From a virus (taxonomy: Duplodnaviria > Heunggongvirae > Uroviricota > Caudoviricetes): a DNA stretch of 24,956 nucleotides. Location of the stretch: IMG/VR virus record IMGVR_UViG_2923292180_000001. The stretch is one strand, 5' to 3'. Made by a program: the position numbers and the translations under genes. This document shows, piece by piece, positions 5,841 to 9,270 of this stretch (position 1 is its first letter; each line of letters opens with the position of its first letter). The notes beneath the pieces are model-generated. The model saw nothing but the letters and a program-made list of their open reading frames with translations, did not search any database and was not told the DNA's origin.

Positions 5841-7458
5841 CTGTAATGTCCCCTTTGAACCATTCTAAAATGTCCCCAGACAATTCTCTGGGGGATTTTT
5901 CATGATCAAAGAGACTGTTACGATGAGTCATAAGGAACTCCACCGACTTCAGATTATTCAGGAACAAGCTGCGGCACGCATTGGCATTTCTATTCGGCAG
6001 GTTAAACGTCTGGTGCAACGGTATAGAAATGAAGGGCCTTCTGGTCTGGTTTCCCACCGACGTGGAAAGCGTCCTAATAATTCCTTTTCTACTGAATTCA
6101 GAGCAACAGTAATTTCACTCCTCAAAGGCCGTTACGCTGATTTTGGACCTACGTTTGCGTGCGAAAAATTGCGCGAGATACACGGTTTATCTTTATCCGT
6201 TGAAACTCTCAGAAAGTGGATGATAGAAGAGGGGTTATGGCGTGAACGCCGTCGTAAAATTGCCCGTATATATCAACGCCGCATGCGACGACCATCTTAC
6301 GGTGAACTGATCCAGATTGATGGCTCACCTCATGACTGGTTTGAAAATCGAGGCCCCAGATGTACACTGATCGTTTTCATTGATGATGCCACCAGTGCGT
6401 TGATGGCGTTGCGTTTTGTGCCTGCTGAAACAACCCGGGCTTACATGGAAACCCTCCGGGGTTACCTTAATGATCATGGCGTACCGCTCGCTCTCTACTC
6501 TGATAGACACAGTATATTCAGGGTAAATAACCCAGAGCGGGAAGGTGAGCTGACCCAGTTCACTCGTGCGATAAAGACACTGGGCATCGAGCCAATCCAT
6601 GCCAACAGCCCGCAGGCAAAAGGGCGGGTAGAGCGCGCCAATCAGACACTACAGGACAGGCTGGTCAAAGAAATGCGGCTTCAGAATATCAGTGATATTG
6701 AAACAGCAAATGCATGGTTGCCGACCTTTATTGAAGCCTATAACAACCGGTTCGCTACGTCGCCTCGTACTACTGATAATGCTCATCTTGATGTGCACCA
6801 TTCTGAAGAGGAACTGGGTTATATCTTCAGCCTACAGGCGAAGCGCGTTCTGTCTAAAAATCTCACTTTCCAGTACAAAAGCAGTGCGTTTCAGGTACGC
6901 AGTGAGGGCCGGGGATATCGACTTAGGCATTCGGTTGTTACTGTATGCGAGAACTTTGACGGTGAAATTAACGTTCTGTATGACGGGAAAGCGCTGGGCT
7001 GGGAAAAGTATGTTGATGGCCCGGAGCCTATACCACTGGATGATGAAAAGAGTGTCCATGAACGAGTGGATAATGCCCGTATTGATTTACGCTCAAAATA
7101 CTATGTTAAACCTAAAGCTGACCATCCCTGGCTTACGCGCCGAACGCAAAGTCATCAGCAAGTTAAGCCCCCGAAGTTACCTAAAAAGAAGCCTGATCCC
7201 GATAAAAAAGATTGAAACCAAGATCGATTCGGTTGAGTGCATATCCATTCATAGGGTAGATTCTTAAGTCGCGTTTCTGGTGTTCATTTTCGGGTGGTTT
7301 GTTACTTGTTTTACCGGGGATATGCCAGAAACGCGCTGAGTCAGTCTGGGCGGTGCGCGTAATGAGGCGTTATGGTAAATAGCCTATGCTAATGTCCGCT
7401 AAGAGCAAGAAGCGGAAGTTGGCAGTTTTGTGGACTGTCCCCACAAAAGTGACTACAG
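5841..7458 (+). mobile_element. Insertion sequence carrying the ISNCY-like transposase; boundaries approximate
   Basis: Single transposase ORF flanked by non-coding arms with short palindromes (CCCCAGA..TCTGGGG near 5875-5893; TTTGTGG..CCACAAA near 7427-7449). No convincing terminal inverted repeats or target duplication could be defined by eye. Confidence 0.3.
5902..7215 (+). CDS. DDE (rve-type) transposase, ISNCY/IS1202-like
   Basis: 437-aa ORF with N-terminal helix-turn-helix (ISIRQVKRLVQRY) and integrase-core signature (..DGSPHDWF.., ..YSDRHSIF.., ..SPQAKGRVERANQTLQD..). Family assignment is from memory. Confidence 0.75.
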   Translation: MIKETVTMSHKELHRLQIIQEQAAARIGISIRQVKRLVQRYRNEGPSGLVSHRRGKRPNNSFSTEFRATVISLLKGRYADFGPTFACEKLREIHGLSLSVETLRKWMIEEGLWRERRRKIARIYQRRMRRPSYGELIQIDGSPHDWFENRGPRCTLIVFIDDATSALMALRFVPAETTRAYMETLRGYLNDHGVPLALYSDRHSIFRVNNPEREGELTQFTRAIKTLGIEPIHANSPQAKGRVERANQTLQDRLVKEMRLQNISDIETANAWLPTFIEAYNNRFATSPRTTDNAHLDVHHSEEELGYIFSLQAKRVLSKNLTFQYKSSAFQVRSEGRGYRLRHSVVTVCENFDGEINVLYDGKALGWEKYVDGPEPIPLDDEKSVHERVDNARIDLRSKYYVKPKADHPWLTRRTQSHQQVKPPKLPKKKPDPDKKD

Positions 7459-7610
7459 AAATAGTTGCAATTCATAATTGATCATGGGTTGTCAGTTAAA
7501 CTCGTGGCGATTTAAATAGACTAATTGGGAGTGCGTCCATTACTTATATCTTGTAATGTTAACTATCAGAAATGATACAAAGATAATATGTCTTTAAAGA
7601 AAAGGCTGAT

Positions 7611-7637
7611 GGCGAAAAGTGGCCCGATGAGGGCCAC
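7611..7637 (-). terminator. Rho-independent terminator downstream of flxA
   Basis: Perfect 7-bp stem GTGGCCC/GGGCCAC (7619-7625, 7631-7637) with 5-nt loop, followed on the minus-strand transcript by UUUUCGCC; 15 bp beyond the flxA stop. Confidence 0.55.
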
Positions 7638-7651
7638 AATACGGCTGTCAC

Positions 7652-7984
7652 TTAGACGTAAATATCAATGGTGCCAGCGGTATTTGTATCGTCTTTTTTC
7701 TCTTCTTTTTTATCAGGCTGAACTGTCGCGTCTTCATTCTTTTTCTCTGCCTGCTGCCTTAACAACTGCTCCAGTTGAGCCCAGAGGCTTTCAATTTGCT
7801 TCTGTACCAATGCAGCCATTTCTTTTTTCTGCTGTGTCGTCATCCCCTCTTCCGATGAGATTTTCCCAAGCTTTTCAGTCAGCACCTGAATTTGTCTTGT
7901 GATTTTGGCTATTTCTGATGTTCCTTCCGGGGCGGAGTTGTTTGAAATAACGGTTGAGGTATTTCCCTGAATTGTGACAGACAT
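7652..7984 (-). CDS. flxA: FlxA (sigma-28-dependent prophage protein)
   Basis: 110-aa product MSVTIQGNTSTVISNNSAPEG...TIDIYV recognised as FlxA; a canonical sigma-28 promoter lies immediately upstream. Confidence 0.9.
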   Translation of the reverse strand: MSVTIQGNTSTVISNNSAPEGTSEIAKITRQIQVLTEKLGKISSEEGMTTQQKKEMAALVQKQIESLWAQLEQLLRQQAEKKNEDATVQPDKKEEKKDDTNTAGTIDIYV

Positions 7985-8006
7985 AGATTTCTCCTTTTAA
8001 AAAAGC

Positions 8007-8033
8007 ACTATCGGCATGCACAAAAAAATCTTT
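8007..8033 (-). promoter_or_regulatory. Sigma-28 (FliA) promoter of flxA
   Basis: Minus-strand sequence TAAAGATT-N11-GCCGATAG (-35 at 8026-8033, -10 at 8007-8014) matches the FliA consensus TAAAGTTT-N11-GCCGATAA with correct spacing; sits 23-49 bp upstream of the flxA ATG. Confidence 0.75.
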
Positions 8034-8186
8034 AATCGTATTTCTTGTGTCATTAATTGTTTGATGTTCAGATTGTTTTCCTCGCGGGCTGGCGCGCCTC
8101 AGAAAGTAAAGCTTGTTGACAGGGGTAAACGTTCGGCAATAATTTTCTGCCGCATGCGGGTGTTGCATAAAACGTGTTACGTTCCT

Positions 8187-8492
8187 TTATCGACAGGTCA
8201 GGTCACCGCTCACCCGCCGACGAGAAAGCAACACTGACATGCTAAAGCAAAAAATAGATGAATAAGTTGAGTTGTGCATATGTAGCCTGACCGTCACAAA
8301 GTATATGGTGTCTGTACCAGTAAGATGATGGCCGGACTCTTTAAAAACGAGCTGACCTGCACAATACAGGATGGACTTAGCAATGGCTGCTCCTGGCACA
8401 AAGCGGACAGTGATCACCGTTCTTACGACTACTTTCTGACTTCCTTCGTGACTTGCCCTAAGCATGTTGTAGTGCGATACTTGTAATGACAT
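8187..8492 (-). CDS. ydfV: Hypothetical prophage protein YdfV-like (101 aa)
   Basis: ORF of the length and position expected between flxA and relB in Qin; its start codon overlaps the relB operator, so the true start and expression are uncertain. Confidence 0.45.
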   Translation of the reverse strand: MSLQVSHYNMLRASHEGSQKVVVRTVITVRFVPGAAIAKSILYCAGQLVFKESGHHLTGTDTIYFVTVRLHMHNSTYSSIFCFSMSVLLSRRRVSGDLTCR

Positions 8493-8504
8493 TTGTAATT
8501 ACAA
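8481..8504 (+). promoter_or_regulatory. relBE operator (relO-like inverted hexad repeats)
   Basis: TTGTAATgacaTTTGTAATTACAA immediately upstream of the relB SD and ATG (8517); the TTGTAAT/ATTACAA repeats are those of the RelB-RelE operator. Confidence 0.6.
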
Positions 8505-8516
8505 GAGGTGTAAGAC

Positions 8517-8756
8517 ATGGGTAGCATTAACCTGCGTATTGACGATGAACTTAAAGCGCGTTCTTACGCCGCGCTTGAAAAAATGGGTGTAACTCCTTCT
8601 GAAGCGCTTCGTCTCATGCTCGAGTATATCGCTGACAATGAACGCTTGCCGTTCAAACAGACACTCCTGAGTGATGAAGATGCTGAACTTGTGGAGATAG
8701 TGAAAGAACGGCTTCGTAATCCTAAGCCAGTACGTGTGACGCTGGATGAACTCTGA
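8517..8756 (+). CDS. relB: RelB antitoxin
   Basis: 79-aa product MGSINLRIDDELKARSYAALEKMGVTPSEALRLMLEYIADNERLPF... recognised as RelB; stop overlaps relE start (TGATG). Confidence 0.95.
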   Translation: MGSINLRIDDELKARSYAALEKMGVTPSEALRLMLEYIADNERLPFKQTLLSDEDAELVEIVKERLRNPKPVRVTLDEL

Positions 8757-9043
8757 TGGCGTATTTTCTGGATTTTGACGAGCGGGCACTAAAGGAATGG
8801 CGAAAGCTGGGCTCGACGGTACGTGAACAGTTGAAAAAGAAGCTGGTTGAAGTACTTGAGTCACCCCGGATTGAAGCAAACAAGCTCCGTGGTATGCCTG
8901 ATTGTTACAAGATTAAGCTCCGGTCTTCAGGCTATCGCCTTGTATACCAGGTTATAGACGAGAAAGTTGTCGTTTTCGTGATTTCTGTTGGGAAAAGAGA
9001 ACGCTCGGAAGTATATAGCGAGGCGGTCAAACGCATTCTCTGA
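8756..9043 (+). CDS. relE: RelE mRNA interferase toxin
   Basis: 95-aa product MAYFLDFDERALKEWRKLGSTVREQLKKKLVEVLESPRIEANKLRG... recognised as RelE; translationally coupled to relB. Confidence 0.95.
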   Translation: MAYFLDFDERALKEWRKLGSTVREQLKKKLVEVLESPRIEANKLRGMPDCYKIKLRSSGYRLVYQVIDEKVVVFVISVGKRERSEVYSEAVKRIL

Positions 9044-9114
9044 ACCAAAGCATGACATCTCTGTTTCGCACCGAAGGTGACACTTCTGCTTTGCGTTGAC
9101 AGGAGAAGCAGGCT

Positions 9115-9270
9115 ATGAAGCAGCAAAAGGCGATGTTAATCGCCCTGATCGTCATCTGTTTAACCGTCATAGTGACGGCACTGGTAACGAGGAAAGACCT
9201 CTGCGAGGTACGAATCCGAACCGGCCAGACGGAGGTCGCTGTCTTCACAGCTTACGAACCTGAGGAGTAA
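9115..9270 (+). CDS. hokD: Hok-family membrane toxin HokD (RelF); below the ORF-track size cutoff
   Basis: 51-aa ORF MKQQKAMLIALIVICLTVIVTALVTRKDLCEVRIRTGQTEVAVFTAYEPEE: single transmembrane segment plus conserved Hok C-terminus; immediately downstream of relE. Confidence 0.85.
   Translation: MKQQKAMLIALIVICLTVIVTALVTRKDLCEVRIRTGQTEVAVFTAYEPEE

Follow-up and report, generated by a model that had tools for sequence, protein, structure and literature searches.

Does a prophage gene of unknown function really answer to the flagellar regulon of its host, and, if so, did the prophage itself create that link? Both questions are raised by flxA, for which a sequence-only reading had proposed a near-consensus sigma-28 (FliA) promoter and hence flagellar class 3 control. 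The window, that is, the whole stretch of 24,956 bases analyzed here, is a Qin-type lambdoid prophage in ydfJ and encodes an integrase, an excisionase, relBE, hokD, rem, ydfU, antiterminator Q, cspB/F/I, a lysis cassette, and pinQ. Positions 7400 to 8700 are 100% identical to the flxA locus in the Qin prophage of Escherichia coli K-12 MG1655, where flxA, ydfV, and relB are annotated. The flxA product matches Pfam family PF14282 at 53.8 bits (gathering threshold, 26.3), with residues 7 to 101 aligned to profile positions 2 to 96 of 101, and is annotated in matching genomes as WP_001301033.1. The gene therefore is flxA and does lie on a prophage, as had been proposed.

A pattern search with the FliA consensus (TAAAGTTT-N11-GCCGATAA) located the 27-mer TAAAGATTTTTTTGTGCATGCCGATAG, composed of TAAAGATT-N11-GCCGATAG, on the minus strand at 8008..8034. 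The corresponding plus strand (8000..8039) is aaaaagcactatcggcatgcacaaaaaaatctttaatcgt, whose reverse complement includes TAAAGATT-TTTTTGTGCAT-GCCGATAG. The motif agrees with the consensus at 14 of 16 positions, with two mismatches and a spacer of exactly 11 nt, which bears out both the degree of match and the exact spacing first read from the sequence; its location had been given as 8007..8033, one base off and with the strand unnamed. Nowhere else in the window, on either strand, does a site come within three mismatches of the consensus. The -10 block retains its CGA core, and the promoter lies on the same strand as flxA, with 23 nt from the end of the -10 block to the ATG and a Shine-Dalgarno sequence between them (Table 1).

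Table 1. Features of the flxA locus, with positions in the window
Feature	Position	Strand	Remarks
-35 block TAAAGATT	8027..8034	-	Consensus TAAAGTTT, 1 mismatch; TAAA core conserved across the homologue alignment
Spacer TTTTTGTGCAT	8016..8026	-	11 nt; length conserved, sequence variable
-10 block GCCGATAG	8008..8015	-	Consensus GCCGATAA, 1 mismatch
Predicted transcription start	7999..8001	-	About 7 to 9 nt past the -10 block; predicted leader of about 15 to 17 nt
Shine-Dalgarno sequence AAGGAG	7991..7996	-	Read from the sequence; 6 nt before the ATG
flxA coding sequence	7652..7984	-	110 aa, PF14282
Terminator-like hairpin GUGGCCC-UCAUC-GGGCCAC, then UUUU	7615..7637	-	Begins 14 nt past the flxA stop codon
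Segment common to the window and Enterobacter sp. HG048	7641..8122	-	88% identity (blastn)

The site might be a chance resemblance within an AT-rich intergenic region that has no promoter function. Many bioinformatically predicted FliA sites lack an experimental test, as Fitzgerald et al. point out (PMC4183435), and when three mismatches are allowed, the chance expectation is 0.37 sites per window, with at least one match in 30 of 100 window shuffles. At the two mismatches actually observed, however, base composition predicts only 0.020 sites, and 1000 shuffles that preserve dinucleotides predict 0.028. A two-block weight matrix was derived from 19 other E. coli FliA promoters validated by ChIP (PMC4183435, Table 2), with flxA excluded. 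It gave the flxA promoter 19.5 bits, compared to 11.9 to 25.9 bits for the training promoters; this score was unsurpassed by any 150-nt tile of the window on either strand and was attained in 0 of 1000 shuffles. The position and orientation of the site also fit flxA, the motif footprint is conserved among diverged homologues (see below), and published ChIP-seq, transcriptome sequencing (RNA-seq), and SELEX data on the identical sequence refute an accidental match, which we consider vanishingly improbable.

Fitzgerald et al. (2014) list the 28-mer TAAAGATTTTTTTGTGCATGCCGATAGT, which is the same in the window, as an in vivo FliA ChIP-seq site with a value of 16 in the FAT column of their Table 2, and report flxA expression of 280 in motile MG1655 compared to 2 in a fliA deletion, a significant difference (PMC4183435). 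Zhao et al. (2007) found flxA reduced 28.4-fold in a fliA deletion and increased 8.2-fold five minutes after induction of FliA (there called sigma-F) (PMC1935009). Ide and Kutsukake (1997; Gene 199:19-23, PMID 9358034) are cited by these papers and by Shimada et al. (see below) for the original discovery and, according to the citing papers, had already compared reporter activity in fliA+ and fliA- backgrounds; the title of their article describes the gene as FliA dependent yet dispensable for motility. Across unrelated transcriptomes, flxA co-varies with fliC, tar, cheW, and ycgR. A candidate link between flxA and LysR regulators (PMC9068703) was rejected as merely flagellar-regulon co-variation in knockout transcriptomes. 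Few E. coli genes depend on FliA as strongly as flxA, which in 2024 was listed among uncharacterized genes (PMC11551758). The published FliA dependence was established in K-12, with which the window strain shares an identical 1.3 kb around the promoter within otherwise different surroundings.

An alternative hypothesis is that most flxA transcripts originate elsewhere, either by read-through of ydfV transcription or at a sigma-70 promoter, so that the dependence of flxA on FliA is indirect. The gene ydfV is encoded on the same strand 202 nt upstream, and a strict scan called no terminator between ydfV and flxA; from this arrangement, some ydfV transcripts may indeed continue into flxA. Against read-through as the main source, a sigma-70 scan of the minus strand over 7300..8600 returned no promoter, expression falls about 140-fold without FliA, and FliA sits on the exact motif (PMC4183435). 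Moreover, Shimada et al. (2017) showed by genomic SELEX in vitro that the reconstituted sigma-28 (RpoF) holoenzyme alone, with no other factor needed, binds the ydfV/flxA spacer (PMC5493296), and homologues located behind wholly different upstream genes retain the sigma-28 motif. Indirect control is thus very unlikely. The feature is almost certainly flxAp, the FliA-dependent class 3 promoter of flxA in a Qin-type prophage, within a cassette that was most likely captured by the phage and whose control is most likely ancestral. The proposal of flagellar class 3 control is supported by the ChIP-seq, fliA-deletion expression, and SELEX results on the identical sequence, but such control is already known for K-12 flxA, and the promoter finding is not new because the identical sequence has been published as a FliA target.

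At flxAp, FliA-containing RNA polymerase recognizes TAAAGATT as the -35 block and GCCGATAG as the -10 block, 11 nt apart, and would begin transcription about 15 to 17 nt 5' of the ATG, a start predicted from the usual geometry of sigma-28 promoters. The resulting mRNA would be short and probably monocistronic, with a likely end at the hairpin just past the stop codon. This 7-bp GC-rich hairpin was first noticed by eye and folded afterwards, with a minimum free energy of -15.6 kcal/mol (z = -2.57; 2 of 200 shuffles were equally stable); a strict terminator scan called none on the minus strand and passed over the hairpin because its U-run is only 4 nt. FlgM keeps FliA inactive until the hook-basal body is complete. 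Since FliA is freed from FlgM only then, flxA would be expressed late, with class 3 timing, alongside the flagellin and chemotaxis genes, from a repressed prophage and regardless of the state of that prophage. The gene and its promoter act as one cassette, and flxA lies on the strand opposite to that of the neighboring genes relBE, hokD, rem, ydfU, and Q. Within the spacer between ydfV and flxA there is also a near-consensus sigma-70-like promoter on the plus strand (8116..8143, TTGACA-16-AATAAT, 11 of 12 positions), which heads towards relB, antisense to ydfV and away from flxA, and whose -35 hexamer forms the edge of the segment conserved in Enterobacter.

The architecture of flxAp is that of class 3 promoters such as those of fliC, tar, tsr, flgMN, and motAB, with which it has the two blocks TAAAGTTT-N11-GCCGATAA in common, and its -35 block is identical to that of the flgMN promoter (PMC4183435, Table 2). 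In contrast to those promoters, the last base of its -10 block is G rather than A. Unlike class 3 flagellar genes, flxA is prophage-borne, lies outside the flagellar clusters, and, going by the title of the 1997 report, is dispensable for motility. A similar case is ykfB in the cryptic prophage CP4-6, another prophage gene of unknown function, which has a site detected by FliA ChIP-seq and is expressed less strongly when fliA is deleted. Compared with flxAp, this site fits the consensus less well, with GATGAATG in the -35 block, and the effect of FliA on ykfB is small relative to that on flxA (118 versus 42 units, or a 3.7-fold reduction [PMC4183435, PMC1935009]).

The promoter in K-12 MG1655 (Qin prophage, b1566) is identical in sequence to that in the window. 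The two loci differ only in their surroundings: the prophage end in the window strain encodes an integrase and an excisionase that look intact, and downstream of flxA the window carries a 437-aa ORF for an ISNCY-type transposase, at a place where K-12 retains nothing but the remnants ydfX and ydfW. Because of this ORF, the window is not K-12 itself. The ORF is unbroken (5902..7215, plus strand), and its product has domains of the helix-turn-helix and rve_3 integrase-core types. K-12 and RefSeq annotate the final 49 codons (7066..7215), read in the same frame, as a separate small protein, YdfW; as YdfW is the in-frame end of the transposase ORF, K-12 ydfW and ydfX look like transposase remnants. 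On the other side of the flxA cassette lies a toxin-antitoxin cluster of relB, relE, and hokD (8517..9270, plus strand), with ydfV diverging from relB.

Of 5,426 complete E. coli genomes, about 1,200 (about 22%) carry flxA with its upstream region, nearly always at 99% identity or more, and the setting within E. coli was always a Qin-type prophage. The gene is present in only one of 50,697 phage records, Escherichia phage PhiR42_1, in which the gene order is as in the window and the product is annotated as "Protein FlxA (FliA regulated)". The relB/relE/hokD block is also present in that phage. IS1 or IS3 elements lie beside or within flxA in several E. coli genomes (H1-H4, H19, H24, and H47), and in two of them (H24 and H47) flxA is annotated as two FlxA-like fragments around an IS1A, which suggests either a hotspot for insertions at this locus or a gene that cells can do without. 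In E. coli ECGI0523, a second, degraded flxA copy (L006 2934..3010; about 66% protein identity) has ATA in place of ATG and carries frameshifts, and its promoter 27-mer is still identical to that of the window.

Phage morons are independently transcribed accessory genes of lambdoid prophages, such as bor and lom of phage lambda. Like morons, flxA is small and accessory, has a promoter to itself, and is followed by a terminator-like hairpin; it is situated between phage modules and expressed from a repressed prophage. Its sigma-28 promoter is independent of early and late phage transcription, and the cassette is found in differing genomic contexts and in a single phage record. Unlike that of morons, its promoter uses an alternative host sigma factor and is shared with chromosomal relatives, which points to a captured member of the host regulon rather than a gene that evolved in phages.

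E. coli copies of the flxA promoter are too alike for footprinting, and divergent homologues were therefore gathered. A contig scan with a four-sequence alignment yielded only four loci, all from Escherichia or Shigella, and the matches from a word-indexed protein search for FlxA were almost all from E. coli; the distant loci came from an exhaustive HMMER search (48 representatives, E <= 0.001) combined with exact-sequence contig look-ups. The homologue in Shigella (100% protein identity) differs from the window promoter by one spacer change (G to T), whereas that of Enterobacter sp. HG048 (85% protein identity) reads TAAAGATA-TTTTATTGCGT-GCCGATAG. Two metagenomic homologues carry TAAAGTCT-N11-GCCGATAC (L011, 65% protein identity, with upstream DNA that is otherwise unrelated) and TAAATTTC-N11-GCCGATAT (L013, 64% protein identity). 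These close relatives retain both blocks, the 11-nt spacing, and a distance of 23 to 24 nt to the ATG, while the spacer sequence and the flanks vary. In a six-sequence alignment of upstream regions, drawn from homologues of 45 to 100% protein identity, the conserved islands are TAAA, G[C/A]CGATA, the Shine-Dalgarno sequence, and the ATG, within surrounding DNA that has diverged; in the -10 block, 7 of the 8 positions of G[C/A]CGATA are invariant, and a purine-rich block is retained at the position of the Shine-Dalgarno sequence.

The same pattern extends to most of the wider family. For each independent locus, the 150 nt upstream of the gene were scored with the 19-promoter weight matrix against 1000 shuffles and against all other 150-nt tiles of that locus. 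A clear sigma-28-type match was found in 11 of 13 independent FlxA-family loci spanning 30 to 100% identity, at 11.5 to 23.4 bits, with p = 0.001 in nine of them and 0.008 and 0.019 in the other two. All 11 matches lie 23 to 32 nt from the start codon, and no rival tile in the respective locus scored as high. Of the remaining loci, one on a contig of 67% GC (L025) was marginal, at 11.4 bits and an unusual distance of 48 nt upstream (p = 0.007), and the other (L027) had no sigma-28 match in the 150 nt upstream (4.5 bits, p = 0.23). The searchable literature contained no description of this family-wide sigma-28 pattern, and the term "FlxA-like" was not found there.

Most of the 11 promoter-bearing loci are chromosomal, in contigs related to Enterobacter, Pantoea, and Erwinia, and several adjoin tRNA-Lys; the distant clusters of the family are named from [Erwinia] mediterraneensis, Pantoea, Enterobacter roggenkampii, and an unclassified Enterobacteriaceae bacterium. 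Many of the distant loci share a non-prophage neighborhood in the order gltX, three tRNA-Val genes, tRNA-Lys, the flxA-like gene, a LysR-type regulator, an SBF-type transporter, QSregVF_b, and ligA, in which the LysR gene is convergent. The chromosomal flxA-like genes (31 to 43% identity) are preceded by sigma-28 motifs of 11.5 to 22.0 bits at 27 to 32 nt from their start codons. With such promoters in front of most FlxA-family genes, chromosomal ones included, sigma-28 control, on this comparative sequence evidence, most likely goes back to the ancestor of the family, and flxA and its promoter most likely entered the phage together as a moron-like cassette.

Alternatively, the promoter may have arisen within the prophage as a phage-specific co-option of the flagellar regulon, rather than being inherited with the gene. 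This would fit the confinement of E. coli flxA to Qin-type prophage contexts, and integrase or transposase genes are neighbors of the closest homologues as well (85% and 65% protein identity). It fits poorly, however, with the sigma-28 motifs of the 31 to 43% identity relatives in their conserved chromosomal neighborhood and with the near absence of flxA from phage records. For many lineages to have gained this promoter independently, each time at an equal distance from the gene, would also be less parsimonious than inheritance, and we regard an origin within the prophage as unlikely. The prophage probably did not itself invent the flagellar-regulon link, because FlxA-family genes on the chromosomes of other Enterobacterales carry such promoters.

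Acquisition of the gene together with its promoter is also consistent with the extent of DNA shared with Enterobacter sp. HG048. This 482-bp segment comprises the 138 nt 5' of the ATG, including the promoter, together with flxA and the 11 nt past its stop codon. It resides in different islands: the Enterobacter copy is flanked by an integrase and an IS3-type ORF, and the copy in the window is flanked by ydfV/relBE and the ISNCY-type transposase ORF. The segment appears to be the unit that moves together. Chromosomal FlxA-like genes were observed directly downstream of the three tRNA-Val genes and tRNA-Lys beside gltX in three contigs (L018 1787..2189, L019 2..77, and L026 1678..2060). Genes for tRNAs are frequent phage attachment sites. 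We speculate that adjacency to tRNA-Lys provided a route for capture of the cassette by a phage, for example, through aberrant excision.

For the field, the motif finding as first stated adds nothing: since 1997, flxAp has been a textbook case of a FliA target outside the flagellar genes, and flxA routinely appears as a class 3 marker in transcriptomes of E. coli. A small additional result of modest weight is that the sigma-28 promoter is conserved across the family and that the gene has chromosomal relatives. The retention of this promoter across Enterobacterales, at a chromosomal location that is itself conserved, speaks for a genuine function that is both conserved and tied to the flagellum. 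The chromosomal relatives and their conserved promoter make the question of FlxA function more tractable and suggest a testable hypothesis, namely, export through the flagellar apparatus.

Structural modeling of FlxA with AlphaFold2 (mean pLDDT of 67) predicted a confident helical hairpin, formed by helices at residues 24 to 42 and 50 to 87, between disordered tails at residues 1 to 21 and 88 to 110 (pLDDT below 50). In the family alignment, a Ser/Thr/Gly-rich N terminus is followed by two helices that flank a conserved G-M-T-x-E-Q-K turn, and the C-terminal part comprises a charged linker and then a conserved I-D-I-Y-V/I. A Foldseek search of the model against the PDB gave no match at E <= 0.001, and a profile search of PDB sequences and an NCBIfam scan with FlxA returned generic coiled-coil similarity only. 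The hairpin itself is of a generic kind, and none of these results pointed to a function.

We tentatively propose, as a possibility that we put well below even odds, that FlxA-like proteins are ancestral chromosomal members of the sigma-28 regulon across Enterobacterales and late substrates of flagellar type III export, and that a Qin-type phage took up gene and promoter from a locus adjoining tRNA-Lys. By analogy with FlgM, FlxA may be secreted after completion of the hook-basal body. Several observations point in this direction: the conservation of the sigma-28 promoter in 11 of the 13 family loci, the disordered, Ser/Thr/Asn-rich N terminus that precedes the helical hairpin, and the presence of FlxA in an E. 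coli culture exoproteome alongside FlgK, FlgL, FliD, FliC, and FlgM (PMC6391000). In addition, FlxA protein and flxA mRNA change oppositely to each other at 42°C, a temperature that destabilizes the flagellar export apparatus and impairs export (PMC6551532). The cytoplasmic protein CheY was also recovered in that exoproteome (PMC6391000), and lysis together with induction of the regulon could therefore explain the presence of FlxA there. No report of FlxA secretion was found in the searchable literature. Two giant proteins, P0131 (3361 aa) and P0147 (2729 aa), match FlxA residues 8 to 50, approximately, in 17 and 7 stretches, respectively; both are repetitive, with a unit that resembles the N-terminal and first-helix segment of FlxA.
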